A DNA stretch of 32,000 bases from Erysipelotrichaceae bacterium (lineage in GTDB: Bacteria; Bacillota_I; Bacilli_A; Erysipelotrichales; Erysipelotrichaceae), in the NCBI GenBank assembly GCA_030604855.1, contig JAUVVC010000005.1, positions 1 to 32,000 on the forward strand. Direction: 5' to 3'. The position numbers and the translations under genes are program-made. Every line of letters begins with the position of its first letter. Positions within the stretch are counted from its first letter, which is position 1. Positions 5,729-30,167 of this stretch are shown piece by piece. Under the pieces are notes generated by a model. The model was given only the letters and a program-made list of their open reading frames with translations, did not search any database and had not been told where the DNA came from.

Positions 5729-6868
5729 TTACCCTAAGAGGGACGCACTGATAACCATGCGTTGAACCTCTGATGTCCCTTCGTAAATTTCTGTAATCTT
5801 GGCATCCCGCATCATGCGCTCAACCGGATAATCACGGGTATAGCCATAACCCCCAAAGAGTTGAACCGCTTGGGTCGTCACTTCCATTGCCGTTTCAGAG
5901 GCATAGAGTTTGGCCATGGCGGCTTCCGTCGAATAAGCTTTGCCCTCATCTTTCAATACAGCGGCTTTGTACACCAACAAACGTGCCGCTTCAACTTTCA
6001 TGGCCATATCAGCCAGCTTGAATTGTGTGTTCTGGAAGGCACTGATGGGTTTATTGAACTGCTTACGTTGTTTGACATAAAGGATCGTCTCATCCAACGC
6101 ACCTTGTGCGATGCCCAATGCCTGAGCAGCAATTCCGATGCGACCTCCATCTAAGGTGCTCATCGCAACTTTGAAACCTTTGCCTTCCTGTCCCAATAAG
6201 TTGGTCAGAGGAACTTTCACATTCTGCAAGACAAGTTCACAGGTTGAGGAACCCCGAATGCCAAGTTTCTTCTCTTTCTTAGAGACACCGAAACCAGGCA
6301 TGTCTTTCTCGACAATGAACGCCGAGATGCCACGTGTTCCAGCAGACTTGTCCGTCATCGCAAAGATGATGTATATATCGGCATAACCAGCATTTGTGAT
6401 GAAGATTTTGGATCCTGTGATGAGGTAGTGATCATCGTGTTTGATCGCAATGGTTTGTTGGCCAGCCGCATCGGTTCCCGCATTGGGTTCGGTCAAACCA
6501 AAAGCACCCAAGGACTTACCTTCTAATAAGGGTTTAAGATACTTCTCTTTTTGCTCGGCGGTCCCAAATTGATGAATGGGATGTGCAGCGAGTGAAGTGT
6601 GAGCGGAAAGAATGACACCAGTTGTGGCACACACTTTGGAAAGTTCTTCAACCGCTAATATATAGCTTAAGGTATCTGCACCGGCACCACCCAATTCTTT
6701 GGCAAAGGGAATGCCCATCATTTTGGCTTCAACCATTTTTTGTAGGGTTTCGCTTGGAAAACGTTCTTCCTCATCGATTTCTGCAGCCAGGGGTTTGACA
6801 TGCTTAAGAGCGAAATCACGAAACATGGTTCGCATCAATTGATGCTTGGGGCTTAAGTTGAAATTCAT
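5729..6868 (-). CDS. bcd: Short-chain (butyryl-CoA-type) acyl-CoA dehydrogenase
   Basis: MNFNLSPKHQL..FPSETLQKMVEAKMMGIPFAKELGGAGADTLSYILAVEELSKVCATTGVILSAHTSL.. closely resembles clostridial Bcd as I recall it. It ends ..EIYEGTSEVQRMVIS... I place the start at 6868, 1 nt past the upstream gene's TGA. The ORF-track start at 6901 is an extension. Confidence 0.85.
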   Translation of the reverse strand: MNFNLSPKHQLMRTMFRDFALKHVKPLAAEIDEEERFPSETLQKMVEAKMMGIPFAKELGGAGADTLSYILAVEELSKVCATTGVILSAHTSLAAHPIHQFGTAEQKEKYLKPLLEGKSLGAFGLTEPNAGTDAAGQQTIAIKHDDHYLITGSKIFITNAGYADIYIIFAMTDKSAGTRGISAFIVEKDMPGFGVSKKEKKLGIRGSSTCELVLQNVKVPLTNLLGQEGKGFKVAMSTLDGGRIGIAAQALGIAQGALDETILYVKQRKQFNKPISAFQNTQFKLADMAMKVEAARLLVYKAAVLKDEGKAYSTEAAMAKLYASETAMEVTTQAVQLFGGYGYTRDYPVERMMRDAKITEIYEGTSEVQRMVISASLLG

Positions 6869-7744: not shown

Positions 7745-7771
7745 TTGATAAATACCCCTTGGGGGTATAAT
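7745..7771 (+). promoter_or_regulatory. Proximal copB promoter with an overlapping CsoR-type operator
   Basis: ATACCCCTTGGGGGTAT (7752-7768) has 7-bp GC-tract arms of the CsoR operator type. It overlaps the -10 TATAAT (7766-7771). TTGATA at 7745-7750 is a possible -35, but the spacer is only 15 nt. Confidence 0.7.
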
Positions 7772-7849: not shown

Positions 7850-9967
7850 ATGTCGAATTCTGATAAATCTTCTAAACATGTCCATTCGGAACACGAAACA
7901 ATGCATGATCATAAGCATTCATCAAAAACAATGGATAAAGAATCTTCAAGCAAGCAAAACGAAGAGAATACTGTAAGTCACTTGCACATGGACCATGAGG
8001 CTAAACCACACAGTGAAGGGCATCACGATCATCATGCGATGATGGTTGAGGATTTCAAGAAGCGTTTTTTCATTTCATTGGTGTTAACACTACCAATATT
8101 GTTGCTATCACCCATGATACAAATGTTCATGGGGGTAGATTGGCGCTTTCCAGGGGATACATATATTTTGTTTGGGTTGTCGACCCTGCTCTTTATCTAT
8201 GGAGGAAAACCTTTCTTAAAAGGAGCGGTGGATGAATTTAATCAAAAATCACCTGCCATGATGATGTTGATCGCATTGGCGATCAGTGTTTCTTATCTCT
8301 ATAGTGTGTTGACGGTCTTTGTTTTGCAGGGAAATGATTTCTTCTGGGAACTTGCAACCTTGATATCCATCATGTTGTTGGGGCATTGGATCGAGATGCG
8401 ATCTGTCTTAGGTGCATCTAAAGCGCTTGAAGAACTCGTTAAACTTATGCCAGATACCGCGCATATGATTCACGATGATGGTGAAATCATGGAACATGCA
8501 CTTGACCACTTCAAAGTAGGATTCAATGTAATGGTAAAACCGGGTGAGAAAATACCTCTGGATGGTGTGATCTATGAAGGTGTCTCTTCCGTCAATGAAT
8601 CCATGATCACAGGTGAATCCGTTCCTGTTGAAAAAGGGATCGGTGATGATATCATCGGAGGATCGATTAATGGTGATGGTGTATTAAAGTTTACGATCAC
8701 AAAAGTTGGAGAAGATACTTTCTTATCTCAAGTCATCAAACTTGTTCGTGAAGCGCAAGCATCGAAATCAAAAACACAAAGATTGGCAGATGTAGCGGCT
8801 AAATGGTTGTTCTACATCGCAGTGGTTTCAGGTTTGTTGACGTTTGTTATCTGGTTGATGTTTGGAGCGGAAATCGGATTTGCGATAGAAAGAACCGTCA
8901 CTGTCATCGTCATTTCATGTCCGCATGCTTTAGGTTTGGCGACACCGTTGGTCACAGCTGTCTCCACAAGTATCGGTGCAAAGAAGGGACTACTTGTCCG
9001 CAATCGTGCTGCTTTCGAAGAAGCTCGTAAGCTTACAACCGTTGTTTTCGATAAGACGGGAACACTAACTGAAGGTGCCTTTGGTGTCACAGACATAATT
9101 GCATATAATATTGATAAACAAGAACTTCTAAAATTGGCGTATGCTGTTGAAATGAATTCTGAACACCCAATTGCGAAGGGAATTGTTGATGAAGGCAAAC
9201 GAATCGGTCTTAATATGTTGGATGTCAAAGACTTCCAAGCGCTCCCAGGCAAGGGTTTGCGTGCAAGTGTTGAAGGTCGAGAAATCATGATCGTCAGCCC
9301 AGGATATCTTAGAACTGCAGACATCCAATATGATCACAAACAGTATGAAGCATTGGCAATCGTAGGAAAGACAGTTGTCTTTGTACTAGAAGATGATAAG
9401 TTGATTGGCATGATCGCATTGTCCGATAAAGTTCGCACAACCGCGATTGAAGCAATCAAAGTGTTGAAGCAAATGAATATTGAAACAGTTATGCTGACAG
9501 GTGACAATCAACGCGTTGCTGAATATGTAGGGAAGCAACTTGAAATCAATACCGTAATCGCTGAAGTTCTACCGCACCAAAAAGCTCAGAAAATCGAAGA
9601 ACTTAGAGGTCCAGGTAAATTTATTGCTATGACGGGAGATGGGATCAATGATGCGCCTTCATTGGCAAAAGCGGATCTTGGCATTGCTATTGGTGCAGGG
9701 ACGGATGTGGCGATAGAAACAGCAGATATCATCCTTGTTAAGAGCAATCCATTGGATGTTGTTAATATCATAAAGCTCTCTAAGGCGACCTATCGTAAAA
9801 TGGTAGAGAACTTGTTCTGGGCTACAGCTTATAACATCATTGCATTACCACTAGCAGCGGGTGTTTTGATGAATCAAGGTATCATGATTTCACCAGCGAT
9901 TGGTGCTGTCTTGATGTCGATGAGTACGATCATCGTTGCAATCAACGCGAGAAGATTGAAAATATAG
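7850..9967 (+). CDS. copB: Copper-translocating P1B-type ATPase, CopB-like (P1B-3: His-rich N-terminus, CPH motif)
   Basis: The N-terminus is His-rich (HVHSEHETMHDHKH..HLHMDHEAKPHSEGHHDHHAMM). The TM6 motif is SCPHALGLATP. Also present: the phosphorylation site DKTGTLT, the hinge GDGINDAP and the HP motif SEHPIA. AGAGGAG ribosome-binding site. Confidence 0.92.
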   Translation: MSNSDKSSKHVHSEHETMHDHKHSSKTMDKESSSKQNEENTVSHLHMDHEAKPHSEGHHDHHAMMVEDFKKRFFISLVLTLPILLLSPMIQMFMGVDWRFPGDTYILFGLSTLLFIYGGKPFLKGAVDEFNQKSPAMMMLIALAISVSYLYSVLTVFVLQGNDFFWELATLISIMLLGHWIEMRSVLGASKALEELVKLMPDTAHMIHDDGEIMEHALDHFKVGFNVMVKPGEKIPLDGVIYEGVSSVNESMITGESVPVEKGIGDDIIGGSINGDGVLKFTITKVGEDTFLSQVIKLVREAQASKSKTQRLADVAAKWLFYIAVVSGLLTFVIWLMFGAEIGFAIERTVTVIVISCPHALGLATPLVTAVSTSIGAKKGLLVRNRAAFEEARKLTTVVFDKTGTLTEGAFGVTDIIAYNIDKQELLKLAYAVEMNSEHPIAKGIVDEGKRIGLNMLDVKDFQALPGKGLRASVEGREIMIVSPGYLRTADIQYDHKQYEALAIVGKTVVFVLEDDKLIGMIALSDKVRTTAIEAIKVLKQMNIETVMLTGDNQRVAEYVGKQLEINTVIAEVLPHQKAQKIEELRGPGKFIAMTGDGINDAPSLAKADLGIAIGAGTDVAIETADIILVKSNPLDVVNIIKLSKATYRKMVENLFWATAYNIIALPLAAGVLMNQGIMISPAIGAVLMSMSTIIVAINARRLKI

Positions 9968-10098: not shown

Positions 10099-10275
10099 AT
10101 GGGAATCATCGGTTTGTTATTAATCATCTGGTTGGTTATGGAATTCACAGGACATCGTCCGTGGGAAAGTAGATATCCATCGCAGACATCCTCTGTTGAA
10201 ATCCTTAAGGAACGTTATGCGAGAGGTGAGATTTCACGCGATGCTTATCTAGAAGCACTGAAGTTGATCCGCTAA
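10099..10275 (+). CDS. SHOCT-domain small membrane protein (58 aa; absent from the ORF track)
   Basis: MGIIGLLLIIWLVMEFTGHRPWESRYPSQTSSVEILKERYARGEISRDAYLEALKLIR. It has one N-terminal TM helix and the SHOCT signature ILKERYARGEIS..Y. AGGAGG ribosome-binding site 7 nt upstream. Confidence 0.8.
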   Translation: MGIIGLLLIIWLVMEFTGHRPWESRYPSQTSSVEILKERYARGEISRDAYLEALKLIR

Positions 10276-10286
10276 AAAGTGGATCT

Positions 10287-10320
10287 TCTTCATTAAATCT
10301 TCATATCAATCAAATACGAT
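10287..10320 (+). promoter_or_regulatory. Response-regulator-box promoter upstream of copZ
   Basis: TCTTCAT-TAAA-TCTTCAT-ATCAATCAAA-TACGAT. This is a perfect 11-bp-phased direct repeat. The reverse complement reads TGAAGATTTAATGAAGA. Confidence 0.65.
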
Positions 10321-10383: not shown

Positions 10384-10593
10384 ATGTATAAAACATTAAT
10401 CATCGATGGGATGCACTGTGGACATTGTGCGGGACTGGTTCAAGTTGAACTGTTTCGTATTCCTCAAGTCAGGGATGTGTCCGTCAATGTCACAAAACGC
10501 AATGCAATCGTTCGCATCGATTCTTCTGTGTCGTTTGAGCAGTTTGCCAAACATGTGGCTGAAGCAGGCTATACCTTGGAACGCTTGATATAA
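10384..10593 (+). CDS. copZ: Copper chaperone, HMA domain
   Basis: 69 aa with the GMHCGHC (MxCxxC) metal-binding loop and a beta-alpha-beta-beta-alpha-beta length and pattern. GAAAGGAAG ribosome-binding site. Confidence 0.9.
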   Translation: MYKTLIIDGMHCGHCAGLVQVELFRIPQVRDVSVNVTKRNAIVRIDSSVSFEQFAKHVAEAGYTLERLI

Positions 10594-10595
10594 AA

Positions 10596-10613
10596 AAGAC
10601 ATTTGCATGTCTT
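10596..10613 (-). terminator. Rho-independent terminator, oriented for the minus-strand peptide gene
   Basis: AAGACAT-gcaa-ATGTCTT hairpin. On the minus strand TTTTTTA follows it. On the plus strand (after copZ) no T-tract follows it. Confidence 0.7.
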
Positions 10614-10707
10614 ACATTCCAAATAACATCATCTGAATCATATCTGCCAATTCTTGTCCACGCATTCCACACATGCGGATGCAGTTGGCCAATGCCAATC
10701 CGTTCAT
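10612..10707 (-). CDS. Unannotated 31-aa Met/Cys-rich peptide (MNGLALANCIRMCGMRGQELADMIQMMLFGM)
   Basis: AAGGAGG ribosome-binding site 7 nt upstream of the ATG (10707). TAA stop at 10614-10612. It has its own terminator and its own response-regulator-box promoter. 7 Met and 2 Cys in 31 residues. Too short for the ORF track. Confidence 0.6.
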   Translation of the reverse strand: MNGLALANCIRMCGMRGQELADMIQMMLFGM

Positions 10708-10730
10708 TTCTATACCTCCTTGATGAAGAA

Positions 10731-10764
10731 AGTCTAACAAGAAGCTGTGAAGATTTGATGGTGA
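10731..10764 (-). promoter_or_regulatory. Response-regulator-box promoter of the 31-aa peptide gene
   Basis: The minus strand reads TCACCAT-CAAA-TCTTCAC-AGCTTCTTGT-TAGACT. The spacing matches the five plus-strand sites. Confidence 0.55.
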
Positions 10765-10822: not shown

Positions 10823-11038
10823 ATGATGCGGATTTTGCGTCTGAAAGTGGATCAGCTCCACGATTATCACAGTGTTCGAAACATTCGAACGAATTTATTG
10901 AACATGCGAGGCATTCAATATGTTCGGGTCACGCGTGATCTAGGGCATATCTTGGTTGAATATATGGATGCGGCGTTATCACCCGCAATGATCATGATGC
11001 AAATTGAACGAATGGGACATCAGGTCAAGATCTACTAA
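10823..11038 (+). CDS. HMA-like (ferredoxin-fold) small protein lacking the CxxC motif
   Basis: MMRILRLKVDQLHDYHSVRNIRTNLLNMRGIQYVRVTRDLGHILVEYMD..MIMMQIERMGHQVKIY. Length and hydrophobic pattern match an HMA domain, but the metal loop reads QLHDYHS and the protein has no Cys. The start is ATG 10823 or 10826, after AAGAGG. The track's 10805 GTG start is less likely. Confidence 0.6.
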   Translation: MMRILRLKVDQLHDYHSVRNIRTNLLNMRGIQYVRVTRDLGHILVEYMDAALSPAMIMMQIERMGHQVKIY

Positions 11039-11040
11039 GT

Positions 11041-11074
11041 TCTTCATCAATTCTACATATGCTTACGCTATACT
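11041..11074 (+). promoter_or_regulatory. Response-regulator-box promoter upstream of the lipoprotein gene
   Basis: TCTTCAT-CAAT-TCTACAT-ATGCTTACGC-TATACT. Confidence 0.65.
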
Positions 11075-11104: not shown

Positions 11105-11767
11105 ATGAAAAAATATCTGATTGTACTTGGCTTATTGAGTATCGTATTAGTGGGTTGTACTGCACAAACCAAACCTGAACCGGTAGTTGAAATTCCGGTT
11201 GAAGTGGAACCCTCTGTGGCGTCGTTTGATGCTTTGGGGACGTCCATCGCATGGACACAAGAAGCGAATGGCTTTGGTTTGATTGCGCCAGATGGAAGTG
11301 CGAGTGTATTCATCGCACAAAACTTTAGTGGAGCTCAAGATATTGTCTTGCGTGTGGATGCGACACCGTTTATCGCAGCAGGTTTGGATGTGACGAAGTT
11401 GTCAGAAACATCATTTGTCGATGGCCTTCTAACCTACAGTGTTGATCTGGATGGATCAAAGACCTACGCGAATGTTGTGGAAGCCTTTACGGATATCGTA
11501 TCCATACAAGCAGACTTGGTTGGGTATCATGCGGCCTTGGATCATTATGGTTTAAGTTTGAATGATGGAAATGTCTTTGAATGGGCAGCGGATGTGAAGA
11601 CCAACGATAAAGACATCGTCTTTGTATTGAACCCACAAAGTTTGATGGATGCCGGTGTGGATGTGGAAAATATTGAAGGTTGGATTTTTGCGGAAGTTGA
11701 AATCATGTTGGCAGATGGTACGATGAAAATGGTTCCGAAGTTGTTGAAACCGTTTGATTTGAACTAA
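11105..11767 (+). CDS. Lipoprotein of unknown function (acidic, 220 aa)
   Basis: Signal peptide plus lipobox MKKYLIVLGLLSIVLVGC. CAGGAG ribosome-binding site. I recognise no family. Two loosely similar internal segments end ..DIVLRVDATPFIAAGLDV and ..DIVFVLNPQSLMDAGVDV. Confidence 0.75.
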   Translation: MKKYLIVLGLLSIVLVGCTAQTKPEPVVEIPVEVEPSVASFDALGTSIAWTQEANGFGLIAPDGSASVFIAQNFSGAQDIVLRVDATPFIAAGLDVTKLSETSFVDGLLTYSVDLDGSKTYANVVEAFTDIVSIQADLVGYHAALDHYGLSLNDGNVFEWAADVKTNDKDIVFVLNPQSLMDAGVDVENIEGWIFAEVEIMLADGTMKMVPKLLKPFDLN

Positions 11768-11800
11768 GCATTCCTTTGCGTCATACTTAATAATATAAAC

Positions 11801-11821
11801 AAGCTCAAAATCTTTGAGCTT
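11801..11821 (+). terminator. Hairpin (weak terminator or attenuator) between the lipoprotein gene and the response-regulator gene
   Basis: AAGCTCAAA-atc-TTTGAGCTT, a 9-bp stem. Only a short interrupted T run (TCGTTG) follows, so read-through into the two-component genes is plausible. Confidence 0.45.
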
Positions 11822-11840
11822 TCGTTGTAGGAGCGGATCC

Positions 11841-12536
11841 ATGTCCTCAAGAAACATACTCATCGTTGAAGATGAACTCAAGTTAGTGGAAGTCTTAAAA
11901 GCCAACTTCGAACATAAGGGTGATCGCGTTTTTGTTGCGCACGATGGCTTGAGTGCGCTTGATATCGCACGAAGCGAAGACATCGATCTTGTGCTCTTGG
12001 ATTGGATGTTGCCACTGATGAGTGGGGATGTCGTTCTTCAGAATCTTCGGAACTTTTCACGGGTACCTGTGATCATGCTTACAGCGCGCTCAGGTGAAAG
12101 TGATATCGTGGATGGGTTGAAACTGGGATCGGATGATTATCTCACCAAGCCTTTCAGTCTTAAAGAATTGAACGCAAGGATTGAAGCCGTCTTGAGACGC
12201 TCACCCGAGTCGAATCAACCCATCTATCAAAAGTTGAAGTTGGATGATCGTTTGACCATTGATTTCGATTCACATCGGATCACCTGCAATCAAGAAATTG
12301 TTCATCTCACACCCAATGAGTTCAAACTGCTGACCATTTTAATCAAACACCCACAGCGTGTTTTCACCCGTGAAGAATTGGTGACCTCTGCTTTTGGGGA
12401 TGATTTCGATGGTTTTGATCGGACGGTGGATACACACATCAAGAACCTTCGGATGAAGTTGGAGGTGGACCCTAAACAGCCTAAAATCATCATTACGGTT
12501 TTTGGCGTTGGCTATCGTTACGGTGGAAATGTATGA
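11841..12536 (+). CDS. OmpR/PhoB-family response regulator (CopR-like by context)
   Basis: Receiver domain (ILIVEDE.., DLVLLDWMLP, LTKPF) plus a winged-helix output domain (..LTPNEFKLL..VDTHIKNLRMKL..VFGVGYRY). I place the start at ATG 11841, after AGGAG. The track's 11814 TTG start is an extension. Confidence 0.9.
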   Translation: MSSRNILIVEDELKLVEVLKANFEHKGDRVFVAHDGLSALDIARSEDIDLVLLDWMLPLMSGDVVLQNLRNFSRVPVIMLTARSGESDIVDGLKLGSDDYLTKPFSLKELNARIEAVLRRSPESNQPIYQKLKLDDRLTIDFDSHRITCNQEIVHLTPNEFKLLTILIKHPQRVFTREELVTSAFGDDFDGFDRTVDTHIKNLRMKLEVDPKQPKIIITVFGVGYRYGGNV

Positions 12537-13927
12537 AGCGTACCTTGCGTCGTCAACTCACCTCAACGATTGTTTTAACCGTTTTAATTGCGGTTTCTTT
12601 TGTCAGCTTATTTTCAAGTTTCATCATTCATGATCATTTCAAAGGATACATCGAAGCTAAACAGACGCAAACCATCCAACAGTTGGTTGCACAAGTGGCC
12701 CAACAATACGAACTTGAAGAGGATCGTTGGGATGTGGAAAACATTCATGAGATTGGGATGGTGGCCTTATACAGTGGTTATATCATCAAAGTCAACGATG
12801 GAAATGGCCAGCTCATCTGGGATGCGGAGCTCGAAGACATGAGTGCTTGTGTTACGATTGCGGATGAAGTGACAGAACGCATGTTGAAGCAATTTCCAAA
12901 CCAAAAGGGTTCATTCAATGATAATCCGTATCCCTTGAGGGTTCAGGATGAAAGCATTGGGGTGGTGAACATCCGTCATTATGGACCGATTTTCTATTCC
13001 ATTGAAGATGAACGTTTCATCAATCAAGTTCAACAAATGTTGTGGCTCATTGCATTATTCAGCATTTTGCTAAGTAGCTTTGTAGGGCTCCATTTGGCTA
13101 AATCACTCAGTCGTCCCTTGACAAAATCCATCAATCAGACATCACTCATTGCTCAAGGCAACTATGGTGGTTTGATTGAAGATGACTCGAACATCGATGA
13201 AGTCCGCTCCCTCATCAAAGCCGTCAATCATTTGTCGACGACAATGGCAGAGCAGGATCGCTTGAAGAAACAACTCACATCCGATGTCGCACATGAACTA
13301 AGAACACCTTTATCAACGCTTGAAATCAGTATGGAAGCGGCGTTGGATGGCATTCTACCCATGGATCAAAAGCGCATGCAAGGCTTGTTGGATGAGATAC
13401 AGCGATTGAGTAAAATTGTGAAGGATCTGGACCAATTGAATCGAATTGAGGAAACGCAACGCTTAAATACTGTTCCATTTGAATTAAGTAGCTTGATTGA
13501 TGAGGTCATCCGTGCCCTTGAGATTCAAAGTCAAACAAAATCCATTCGAATCAAAACGAATGGGGACTCACTTTCTATTACAGGAGATCGTGATCGTTTG
13601 AACCAAGTCTTTTATAACCTAATCCTAAATGCTTTGAATTACTCAAATCCAAATTCAAACATCGAAGTCCAGTGGATGAGAATCCATGAAAACGTTCAAA
13701 TCACCATAAAAGACGAAGGCATCGGGATCCCTGAAAAAGAACTTCCGCATATCTTTGATCGCTTCTATCGTGTTGAGAGTGCCCGTGATCGCATCCGGGG
13801 TGGAAGTGGGATTGGTCTTGCCATCGTCAAACGTTTCATTGAAGCCCATAAGGGGTCGATCACAGTCACAAGTTCTGAAAATATCGGTACCACCTTCACG
13901 ATCACATTACCTTTAAAATCTTCATAA
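12533..13927 (+). CDS. Sensor histidine kinase (two TM helices, extracytoplasmic domain, HAMP, HisKA, HATPase_c)
   Basis: ATGA overlap with the response-regulator gene. H-box SDVAHELRTPLS, N-box NLILNALNYS, G-boxes DEGIGI and GGSGIGLAIV. A ~135-aa loop lies between TM1 (~res 12-32) and TM2 (~res 170-190). Confidence 0.9.
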   Translation: MKRTLRRQLTSTIVLTVLIAVSFVSLFSSFIIHDHFKGYIEAKQTQTIQQLVAQVAQQYELEEDRWDVENIHEIGMVALYSGYIIKVNDGNGQLIWDAELEDMSACVTIADEVTERMLKQFPNQKGSFNDNPYPLRVQDESIGVVNIRHYGPIFYSIEDERFINQVQQMLWLIALFSILLSSFVGLHLAKSLSRPLTKSINQTSLIAQGNYGGLIEDDSNIDEVRSLIKAVNHLSTTMAEQDRLKKQLTSDVAHELRTPLSTLEISMEAALDGILPMDQKRMQGLLDEIQRLSKIVKDLDQLNRIEETQRLNTVPFELSSLIDEVIRALEIQSQTKSIRIKTNGDSLSITGDRDRLNQVFYNLILNALNYSNPNSNIEVQWMRIHENVQITIKDEGIGIPEKELPHIFDRFYRVESARDRIRGGSGIGLAIVKRFIEAHKGSITVTSSENIGTTFTITLPLKSS

Positions 13928-13952
13928 GTTCTCCATAAGCATGGATTAGACT
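13919..13952 (+). promoter_or_regulatory. Response-regulator-box promoter upstream of the cueP-like gene
   Basis: TCTTCAT-AAGT-TCTCCAT-AAGCATGGAT-TAGACT. The first half-site is built from the last two codons and the stop of the kinase gene. The -10 ends 6 nt before the ATG at 13959. Confidence 0.6.
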
Positions 13953-13958
13953 GGTTAT

Positions 13959-14537
13959 ATGAAAATAAATAGAATGTTGAAAATAGGAGGCGCTTTGTTG
14001 ATCGCAATCACAATTGGCGTCAGTGCATTGTTGTTAAATACAAAACGAGTGAATGCAGAAAGTATTTTAGAACGTTTGGGCTTACAGAATCAAGACCTGA
14101 GCAGTGTCGTCTTAGCCTTGGATGAACGTCTGGATGAACCTCAAGATATCGGGGCACGCATCACGGGTGAAGACTTGCTTCTCTATCAAGGAGAAGAGGA
14201 GTTCAAAGTCGCAATACCCGATGGACTGTTCTTCGTATCAATTGCGCCATACATCAATGACGTCCATCCGTGTCAAATCCACAATCTGATCAGCTGTCGT
14301 GGTGAATTGTATGGTGAAACCATGCTCATCACCATCACATTAAATGATGGGACCGTGCTCTTCAGTGAAGAACGCACAACACAAGCCAATGGCTTCATCG
14401 GTCTCTGGTTACCAAGTGGGATCGAAGGAACCTTAAGTGTCGAGATGTCCAATCGTATCGTGACACATCCGATCTCAACCTATGCCAACAGTGATACCTG
14501 TATCACGACGCCTTTGAAGTTATTGCCTAAAGCTTAA
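13959..14537 (+). CDS. CueP-family extracytoplasmic copper-binding protein (signal or anchor sequence)
   Basis: N-terminal signal or anchor MKINRMLKIGGALLIAITIGVSALLL. It carries H103-x-C105-x7-C113 (HPCQIHNLISC) and C181. The Cys spacings (8 and 68) and the His at -2 match Salmonella CueP His94/Cys96/Cys104/Cys172 as I recall them. The start is uncertain. ATG 13959 has no ribosome-binding site, so the transcript may be leaderless. Alternatively an in-frame TTG at 13995 or 13998 follows AGGAGG. Confidence 0.7.
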   Translation: MKINRMLKIGGALLIAITIGVSALLLNTKRVNAESILERLGLQNQDLSSVVLALDERLDEPQDIGARITGEDLLLYQGEEEFKVAIPDGLFFVSIAPYINDVHPCQIHNLISCRGELYGETMLITITLNDGTVLFSEERTTQANGFIGLWLPSGIEGTLSVEMSNRIVTHPISTYANSDTCITTPLKLLPKA

Positions 14538-29433: not shown

Positions 29434-29537
29434 AATTACATTGCTTACATTCATTTCATCACTTCCTTTAAGCGCGGCTTTGGTGTAGAATACGCCTATA
29501 AAGTACGCAATGTACTTTATTAAGCAAAATCAAATCG

Positions 29538-29605
29538 TTTTGTATAATCGCAGTAAGCTATGGTCTGCAAGTCTCTACCCCTTCACCCCTGAAGGGACTA
29601 CAAAA
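29538..29605 (+). promoter_or_regulatory. Purine riboswitch aptamer, guanine/hypoxanthine class
   Basis: P1 is TTTTGTA/TACAAAA. J1/2 is TAAT. P2 is CGCAG..CTGCA with the loop TAAGCTATGGT. J2/3 is AGTCTCTAC. P3 is CCCTTC/GAAGGG. J3/1 is ACT, with C at the ligand-discriminating position (29598). This aligns with the B. subtilis xpt G-box as I recall it. Confidence 0.85.
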
Positions 29606-29637
29606 TAAAAATAAGCTTTTTAGCTATTTTTGTTTTT

Positions 29638-29678: not shown

Positions 29679-30167
29679 ATGGAAAATCAAGTCAAAGTAT
29701 CGGTTGTCATGGGCTCTATTTCAGATTACGACACGGTCAAAGAAGCATGCATGATCTTAGATGGCTTCAATGTCAGTTACGAGAAAAAGATCGTGAGCGC
29801 ACATCGTACCCCTGAGTTCATGGTCGCTTATGCGAAAGAAGCTCGCGCAAACGGCATTCAGGTCATCATTGCGGCAGCGGGAGGAGCAGCCCACCTGCCT
29901 GGCATGATCGCAAGTTTGACGACCCTACCAGTCATCGGAATCCCCATTCAATCCAAAGCACTCAATGGTTTGGACAGTCTACTCTCCATCGTACAAATGC
30001 CCGCTGGTGTTCCGGTTTTAACCACCGCCATTGGGATTGCTGGAGCTAAGAATGCCGCCTTGGGTGCTTTACGCATATTAAGTCTTCATGATCAAGCCAT
30101 TGAAGAAAATCTTCGTGCTTATCAAGCAAAGAATGAAAAAGATGTGATGGAGACGCCTCTACCATGA
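29679..30167 (+). CDS. purE: N5-carboxyaminoimidazole ribonucleotide mutase
   Basis: ..[40 protein letters not shown].. are PurE signature regions. AGGAGG ribosome-binding site. Confidence 0.95.

Follow-up and report, generated by a model that had tools for sequence, protein, structure and literature searches.

A 32,000-nucleotide stretch of DNA from an Erysipelotrichaceae bacterium (GenBank assembly GCA_030604855.1, contig JAUVVC010000005.1, positions 1 to 32,000; hereafter the window) carries, within an island of copper-homeostasis genes, a minus-strand open reading frame (ORF) of 31 codons whose product is probably a new copper-stress protein. Comparison across related loci indicates that the ORF is genuine and that purifying selection on it is strong. 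It is very probably a translated member of a regulon defined by a response-regulator (RR) box, which also precedes the genes for CopZ, CueP and a two-component system (TCS) encoded next to it. We propose a cytoplasmic helical hairpin with sulfur ligands for Cu(I), and weigh this below against other roles for so small and so strongly conserved a product.

The gene is laid out as a compact unit convergent with copZ (Table 1). All the features listed for it in the original prediction, which had been made from the letters of this DNA and a list of its ORFs, are found at their coordinates when the minus strand is read, and the promoter span given there, 10764-10731, corresponds exactly to the box, its spacer and the -10 element. 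The box occupies the position of a -35 element, transcription would start near 10724, and we propose a monocistronic unit of ~135 nt with a cytoplasmic product of ~3.4 kDa, in which 7 of the 31 residues are Met and 2 are Cys. The convergent stop codons are 18 nt apart; the hairpin occupies this interval and shares 2 nt with the stop codon of the peptide gene. The run after the stem had been read as TTTTTTA; two of those six T belong to the stem, so the tail proper is TTTT-A-T-A-T, with four. The further assertion that the T-tract exists only in the orientation of the peptide gene holds: on the plus strand the hairpin is followed by ACATTCC, so that the tract serves the peptide direction only, and the T-tail is conserved on the minus strand. 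There, and on that strand only, the 7-bp stem followed by TTTTATAT has the stem-loop and U-rich tract of an intrinsic terminator. A scan for consensus sigma-70 promoters and terminators reported none for the unit, a result that is uninformative here because the promoter is of the activator type and the hairpin is AT-rich. The unit is beyond chance on comparative data, not on generic scans.

Table 1. Coordinates of the peptide transcription unit, the other box promoters and the copper-island genes in the window, and of SHOCT genes at related loci
Feature	Coordinates	Strand	Remarks
RR box TCACCATCAAATCTTCAC (TCACCAT-CAAA-TCTTCAC)	10764-10747	minus	two 7-bp direct repeats, 11-bp period
Spacer, box to -10, 10 nt, AGCTTCTTGT	10746-10737	minus	direct reading
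-10 element TAGACT	10736-10731	minus	preceded by TGT (extended -10 TGT-TAGACT, 10739-10731)
Spacer, -10 to ribosome-binding site, TTCTTCATC	10730-10722	minus	direct reading
Ribosome-binding site (RBS) AAGGAGG	10721-10715	minus	7 nt before ATG
Spacer, RBS to ATG, TATAGAA	10714-10708	minus	
31-codon ORF and stop, MNGLALANCIRMCGMRGQELADMIQMMLFGM	10612-10707	minus	ATG at 10707, TAA 10614-10612
Hairpin AAGACAT-GCAA-ATGTCTT	10613-10596	minus	7-bp stem; terminator
T-rich tail TTTTATATCA	10595-10586	minus	overlaps copZ stop codon of the opposite strand
Box TCTTCATTAAATCTTCAT, 10 nt, TACGAT	10287-10304	plus	upstream of copZ; matrix score 18.9
Box TCTTCATCAATTCTACAT, 10 nt, TATACT	11041-11058	plus	upstream of the lipoprotein-RR-kinase operon; matrix score 22.2
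Box TCTTCATAAGTTCTCCAT, 10 nt, TAGACT	13919-13936	plus	within the 3' end of the kinase gene, upstream of cueP; matrix score 22.8
Copper P-type ATPase CopB	7850-9967		611 bits against a 397-bit cut-off (TIGR01511)
58-aa SHOCT protein	between copB and copZ		
CopZ	10384-10593	plus	
71-aa HMA-like protein lacking metal-binding Cys	10823-11038	plus	HMA_2 E 8e-4, CopZ_Bs E 7e-5
Lipoprotein gene	first gene of operon 11105-13927	plus	
OmpR/PhoB-family RR	11841-12536	plus	
HAMP/HisKA histidine kinase	12533-13927	plus	
CueP	13959-14537	plus	
Met/Gly-rich SHOCT genes at other loci	L017 514-1158; L044 1108-1752; L035 6361-7191; L016 3371-3925; L056 8303-8950		

The case for a protein-coding gene comes from the way the region has diverged. 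Gene callers report the exact 31-residue product from 16 metagenome contigs, which group into clades. Those of clade 2 (L002, L006, L008-L010) depart from the window by 11-32% in the DNA of the flanking genes and at 7/96 positions in that of the peptide gene, with all 7 changes synonymous and 0 non-synonymous. By the Nei-Gojobori method, the synonymous (dS) and non-synonymous (dN) rates between the window and clade 2 are 0.66 and 0 for the peptide, against 0.89 and 0.16 for copZ, 1.75 and 0.27 for the HMA-like gene, 1.18 and 0.25 for the lipoprotein gene and 2.15 and 0.06 for the RR gene; over the neighbouring genes as a whole, dS is about 0.6-2.1 and dN 0.02-0.27. A synonymous rate like that of the neighbours, combined with zero non-synonymous change, therefore points to constraint on the protein and rules out conservation as an RNA or DNA element only. 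On this comparison the peptide region is as old as its neighbours, and its product is the most strongly conserved one of the copper island. Over 10 alleles, third codon positions account for 10 of the 12 variable sites, with the other two altering residues 29 and 30 in a variable tail; the five other reading frames gather 5-11 variable residues over the same alleles.

The signals around the ORF have been retained along with it. The AAGGAGG of the RBS is invariant across clades amid surrounding bases that vary, and three clades conserve TAGACT or TAGAGT at a constant 10 nt past the box. In clade 3 (L012-L014) the stem reads AAGTCAC/GTGACTT against AAGACAT/ATGTCTT in the window, which amounts to two compensatory pair changes with the T-tract kept, and other family members have clear hairpin-plus-T terminators downstream. 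The original prediction had held that this is a genuine peptide gene with a terminator of its own, and had pointed to synonymous-site variation and an intact frame as the way to check it: the frame is conserved with dN = 0 at a dS of 0.66, there are no frameshifts in the family, and the stem covaries.

The same data bear on a role at the RNA level, in which the unit would act by antisense or transcription interference against read-through from copZ, or as a small RNA, with the ORF incidental. In several clades the peptide gene and a cop operon converge, meeting at the 3' end of the latter, and copZ has no T-tract of its own, as such a role would have it. Against this, synonymous sites evolve as fast as in neighbouring genes with no non-synonymous change at all, and the frame, RBS and length are kept in ~30 divergent members in unrelated contexts. 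Rfam at gathering thresholds has no match for the unit either, its match in the window being a purine riboswitch elsewhere. An RNA-only role is effectively excluded because of the synonymous-only divergence, and we regard RNA-level explanations as extremely improbable.

The peptide belongs to a family that totals about 30 distinct homologues of 29-33 aa. A phmmer search against 1.84 billion representative proteins recovered four small relatives of 29-32 aa (E 2e-5 to 8e-4), besides two repetitive eukaryote-like matches taken to be spurious. Scanning metagenome contigs by degenerate pattern, with the family alignment, recovered 34 loci, all encoding an ORF of 29-33 aa from an ATG; an AGGAGG-type RBS is present in nearly all of 38 family loci. 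A word-indexed protein search with extended versions of the peptide (40-42 aa) returned near-identical sequences only. Neither the peptide nor any of 30 relatives has a match in Pfam or NCBIfam, a profile search of the PDB with the family gave no meaningful match, and in NCBI some members bear the label 'hypothetical protein' (KAF0224461.1, of an Erysipelotrichaceae metagenome-assembled genome, MAG, is one). The literature that was searched holds no description of the peptide family, and a review of small proteins in Gram-positive bacteria, which covers the inhibition of KinA by Sda, makes no mention of copper. Small stress-induced metal or regulatory peptides under two-component regulons are known already as a kind; the present family, and the fact that a CopR-type regulon of Bacillota-like anaerobes includes it, appear undescribed. 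As its representative, the cluster of the window peptide at 90% identity (P0009-P0011) has a 378-aa 'predicted permease' with no relation to the peptide; the 'permeases' of 378-406 aa found there were set aside as a clustering artefact, and a cluster so headed could mask the peptide in searches limited to representatives.

In an alignment of 30 distinct sequences, conservation spans residues 1 to 28, with M1, G3, C9, G17, L20 and M27 invariant and L6, A7, I10, C13, A21 and I24 conserved in at least 90%. Clusters of Met and Cys had been singled out in the original prediction as the likely Cu(I) ligands. Of this, a core of Cys9, Cys13 and Cys23 together with Met27 stands, and general Met-richness does not: beyond the initiator only Met27 is invariant, Met26 is common, and Met12, Met15 and Met31 are clade-specific (over the family, 9% of residues are Cys and 11% are Met). 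Cys9 and Met27 are found in 30/30 members and Cys13 in 28/30, and position 23 is Cys in 24/30, Met in 5 (the clade of the window and the P0006 clade) and Phe in 1. The conserved feature of the family is thereby a set of three candidate sulfur ligands, Cys9, Cys13 and Cys23, plus Met27, with Met23 in the clade of the window. The substitutions look like ligand swaps—the change of C13 to Ser or Met is accompanied by His15, that of C23 to Phe by a new Cys31, and that of C23 to Met by extra C-terminal Met. A soft-metal site is favoured, though not proved, by the exchange of Cys for Met at 23 and by the swaps that bring in His and Cys.

The regulatory context is defined by the promoter box. Its register was found by aligning the upstream regions of family members on their -10 elements, which gives the consensus TCTTCAT-AATA-TCTACAT: two 7-bp direct repeats with a 4-bp gap and an 11-bp period. 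The box lies exactly 10 nt upstream of TAnnnT in about 24/28 family promoters, the ATG follows 40-52 nt past it, and the box of the window fits this register. An initial reading as TTCAC-N6-TTCAC was rejected, for it does not match the window site, in which two TTCAC stand 14 nt apart; the 7-4-7 reading is correct. A position weight matrix (the matrix of Table 1) built from 19 family-promoter boxes finds four matches only in the window, all in the copper island and each 10 nt before a TAnnnT: besides the peptide gene, these precede copZ, the operon of the lipoprotein, RR and histidine kinase (HK), and cueP. At the same stringency, 100 Markov-simulated windows gave zero matches. Equivalents of the box of the lipoprotein/RR operon are found in L022, L035 and L041, and of the cueP box in L022, L017, L043, L044, L012 and L056. 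Across 205 kb of other loci, wherever a box has an annotated target, this is the peptide gene, cueP, copA/copB or a lipoprotein/RR operon; a few weak or unlabelled matches are the exceptions.

Two claims of the original prediction are upheld by these results. One is that the gene has an RR-box promoter of its own. The other is its membership of the local copper regulon, which follows from the occurrence of this box before copZ, cueP and the TCS operon as well. The autoregulatory placement of the box and the content of the regulon point to the island RR as its presumed regulator, and we infer that this RR activates all four box promoters; copper would be the signal, judging by the same content (CopZ, CueP, CopA/B). 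The cueP box falls within the last codons of the HK gene and gives cueP a promoter of its own, as it likewise does in L022, L012, L017, L044 and L056. At two loci (L025 ~1040-1090 and L037 ~5920-5970) a different direct repeat, …ACACACTTTCGTAAC, precedes TAnnnT by 10 nt in the same register, and these members may be under a regulator of altered specificity.

Two characterized systems share elements of this architecture. The pho boxes of Escherichia coli PhoB consist of two 7-bp direct repeats with a 4-bp gap that stand in for the -35 element, 10 bp upstream of the -10. The window box has the same 7-4-7 layout and -10 distance; its repeat sequence is different, and the regulon here contains copper rather than phosphate genes. 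The CopR site of Corynebacterium glutamicum, TGAAGATTTgaTGAAGATTT, was defined by electrophoretic mobility shift assay and mutagenesis (PMC3140484), and its half-site TGAAGA and 11-bp period are the same as those of the window box (PMC3140484). The reverse complement of the box is TG(A/T)AGA-N5-TGAAGA, with the plus strand of the window reading GTGAAGATTTGATGGTGA. Set against the CopR operator TGAAGATTT, a direct repeat with a 2-bp linker, the window matches the first repeat at 9/9 positions, has the identical linker 'ga' but matches the second repeat at only 4/9; the family consensus keeps TG(A/T)AGA in both repeats. In C. glutamicum, too, the site lies in a divergent intergenic region adjoining the TCS operon and the targets are copper pumps and chaperones, and no small peptide target is reported (PMC3140484). 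The differences are that C. glutamicum is of another phylum, the contigs here being Bacillota-type, and that its single site lies far upstream of the mapped cg3286 start, whereas here the box is directly upstream of the -10 element and at four promoters.

The genomic contexts of the family extend beyond the copper island. The island itself, as originally described, is borne out by its genes, those of the CopB ATPase, the SHOCT protein, CopZ, the Cys-less HMA-like protein, the lipoprotein, the RR and HK, and CueP. Among 24 non-redundant contexts, a CopA/B, CopZ, CueP or Met-rich SHOCT gene lies within 6 kb of the peptide gene in about one-third, and the last gene of a cop operon often runs convergent to it. 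In OW818668.1 (complete, 2.03 Mb) it closes a 9-kb copper island with the order CopA, CsoR, HMA-DsbD protein, HMA, RR, HK, CueP, CopZ, SHOCT and then the peptide, and in L040 it lies 12 nt past a SHOCT gene (129 aa) on the same strand; a second complete genome, OW818667.1, carries the family too. The gene is not one of copper islands only, however: in about two-thirds of the contexts there is no copper gene within 6 kb. These contexts are unrelated (DegV, alcohol dehydrogenase, sortase, LarA and others), and most of them keep the box. Retention of the box in unrelated contexts makes the peptide look like a core member of the regulon and not the accessory of one operon. In several clades the peptide gene is adjoined by genes for membrane proteins that have a SHOCT domain at the C terminus and repeats rich in Met and Gly (GGMMG, YGGMMGRNYGY), and these are possible functional partners of the peptide. 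In clade 3 (L012/L013 8776-10050) a MacB/FtsX-type permease replaces copB upstream of SHOCT-copZ, with the peptide, box and terminator kept.

AlphaFold2 predicts for the peptide a helix at 3-13, a turn G14-x-x-G17 and a second helix at 18-29 (mean pLDDT 80). On this basis the following mechanism is proposed. As copper rises, the locally encoded OmpR-family TCS would switch the peptide on together with copZ, cueP and its own operon. Translation would start at the strong AAGGAGG site, and transcription would end at the hairpin that stands back-to-back with, and is common to, copZ. In the helical hairpin Cys9 and Cys13 would lie on one helix, and residue 23 (mostly Cys, Met here) and Met27 on the other. 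Cu(I) could then be bound by three or four sulfur ligands, supplied by a single hairpin or by two hairpins dimerised into a small four-helix bundle. The peptide would thereby buffer cytoplasmic Cu(I) on induction, or pass it on to the export machinery. That Cu(I) binding is the working principle of the peptide is a proposal we hold tentatively, a little short of an even call.

Several known classes of small or copper-related protein were considered and rejected. A lipoprotein signal peptide, suggested by L-A-N-C, is contradicted on inspection by the mere 8 residues before the Cys, the lack of a charged n-region and the N or Q at -1. A metallothionein of the MymT kind does not fit 2 Cys in 31 residues here, 3 in most relatives, and a single CxxxC. 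An HMA/CopZ metallochaperone is not indicated by any Pfam or NCBIfam match in 30 members and is at odds with the predicted helical hairpin, and in the case of a type I toxin or membrane peptide, R11, R16, E19 and D22 break any hydrophobic span. MymT of Mycobacterium tuberculosis is a copper-induced small metallothionein that binds several Cu(I) and is under a CsoR-type repressor. The peptide resembles it as a short, easily missed ORF with a presumed role in cytoplasmic Cu(I) sequestration by thiolates, its induction here being part of the proposal; MymT is longer and much richer in Cys, while the peptide has 2-3 Cys, an RR promoter and no sequence similarity to it. Csp1 and Csp3 are four-helix bundles of >100 aa with many Cys that hold Cu(I) inside. 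The spacing of Cys at i, i+4 along helices is common to them and the peptide, the latter being a 31-aa hairpin for which any bundle would need a hypothetical dimerisation.

The same hairpin raises the main rival, a serious if unlikely one, namely a feedback or connector peptide like Sda or MgrB that would dock on the DHp domain of the HK, on the RR or on the ATPase and tune the copper response. The cysteines would in that case be structural, or would make the interaction copper- or redox-dependent. Sda of Bacillus subtilis is a 46-aa kinase inhibitor with a two-helix hairpin shape, and MgrB of E. coli is a membrane peptide that, as a member of the regulon, feeds back on its own kinase. The predicted two-helix hairpin of the peptide recalls Sda, and its standing as a core regulon target with its own box promoter even when unlinked from cop genes suits a feedback role, as does an RR/HK pair nearby in four non-copper contexts (L018, L027, L048, L049). 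Yet action on a kinase is hypothetical here, the peptide resembles neither Sda nor any Pfam family in sequence and is no homologue of MgrB, and it has no hydrophobic span of the kind that makes MgrB a membrane peptide. A docking surface alone would also leave the invariant or near-invariant cysteines and the ligand-swap substitutions without explanation. A further reading, in which the helical hairpin would sense cytoplasmic Cu(I) at a three-sulfur site and its copper-bound form would act on the envelope-sensing TCS or the export ATPase, we consider rather improbable. If true, it would couple cytoplasmic and extracytoplasmic copper sensing and would define a new class of regulon-core thiol peptides in Bacillota.

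The thiols could also serve copper stress in another way, by binding Zn, by holding an Fe-S cluster bridged across a dimer, or as sacrificial or redox thiols that protect or repair copper-damaged targets. Three conserved Cys on two helices suit Zn or Fe-S as well as they suit Cu(I), His is frequent at positions 11, 15 and 16 of the family, and some contexts have a redox flavour, such as the aldo-keto reductases and the MerR-family regulator in L016. However, the replacement of Cys23 by Met in two clades, with the extra Met, would by general coordination chemistry fit a soft Cu(I) site better, and the genes with the same box are those of copper chaperones and pumps. We consider such a role improbable. 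As a small Cys-containing peptide tied to copper stress, the product might finally be the precursor of a modified or exported peptide, either a pheromone or a metallophore of the ribosomally synthesized and post-translationally modified type, like the bufferins, which are ribosomal Cys peptides induced by copper stress (PMC11626156). Bufferins need MNIO-type modifying enzymes and export. No recurrent modifying enzyme or exporter stands beside the peptide gene in the Pfam-annotated contexts, the peptide shows neither a leader/core split nor a signal peptide, and it is conserved from its first residue. This role is unlikely because partner enzymes are absent, and we give it scarcely any weight.

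Several points weigh against Cu(I) binding under copper control, the reading we prefer. The context data are one, in that most family members have no copper gene nearby. The TCS is another: against the NCBIfam heavy-metal models (TIGR01387 / TIGR01386) the RR scores 157.7 bits where the cut-off is 279.2 and the HK 203.9 where it is 292.6, and the best NCBIfam match of the RR is PhoB, also below its cut-off. Two or three Cys per 31 residues are far below metallothionein content, and a lone site of three sulfurs would suit Zn, an Fe-S cluster or a redox/disulfide switch just as well. The AlphaFold alignment is shallow (6 sequences), and a Foldseek comparison of the model with the PDB gave no significant match, which for a 31-residue hairpin is to be expected. 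The terminator hairpin is weak on energy alone (-5.8 kcal/mol, z ~ -1.9). Copper induction, translation and metal binding are all things that we infer from sequence.

The rest of the island has features of its own. A CsoR-type palindrome, TACCCCTTGGGGGTA, at 7753-7767 (plus strand) overlaps a TATAAT ~80 nt upstream of copB, which appears to be under a control different from that of the box genes; no CsoR-like ORF motif was found anywhere in the window, and the related islands L035, L041 and L056 have a CsoR gene beside CopA. Because of the palindrome at copB and of CsoR beside CopA in these relatives, the island seems to have its pump under CsoR control and its chaperone set under the TCS. After the SHOCT gene, and abutting the copZ box, there is a terminator-like hairpin at 10266-10285 (plus strand), GATCCGCT-AAAA-AGTGGATC followed by TTCTTCATTA; this placement suggests that copB-SHOCT and copZ are separate transcription units. 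The HMA-like protein without metal-binding Cys evolves fast (dN 0.27-0.31), and its gene has a sigma-70-like promoter, TTGAAT-17-TAAACT, conserved in three clades. A scan of a genome collection with the neighbouring lipoprotein found one distant Bacillota MAG locus, without box and without peptide. Away from the island, a purine riboswitch aptamer (RF00167, 61 bits against a gathering threshold of 37) lies at 29520-29620 (plus strand), upstream of an ORF at 29679-30167.

Copper homeostasis in Gram-positive anaerobes is usually described in terms of CsoR or CopY, CopA/B and CopZ. The present analysis points to a second regulatory layer, a CopR-type two-component regulon over copZ, cueP and a 31-residue peptide, and the promoter box can be used as a motif to map the whole of this regulon in complete genomes. 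The peptide gene also provides a clean case of a real gene below the usual length threshold of annotation, validated by synonymous-only divergence. Its product is short enough to be synthesized, and hence the hypothesis that it binds Cu(I) is directly testable.

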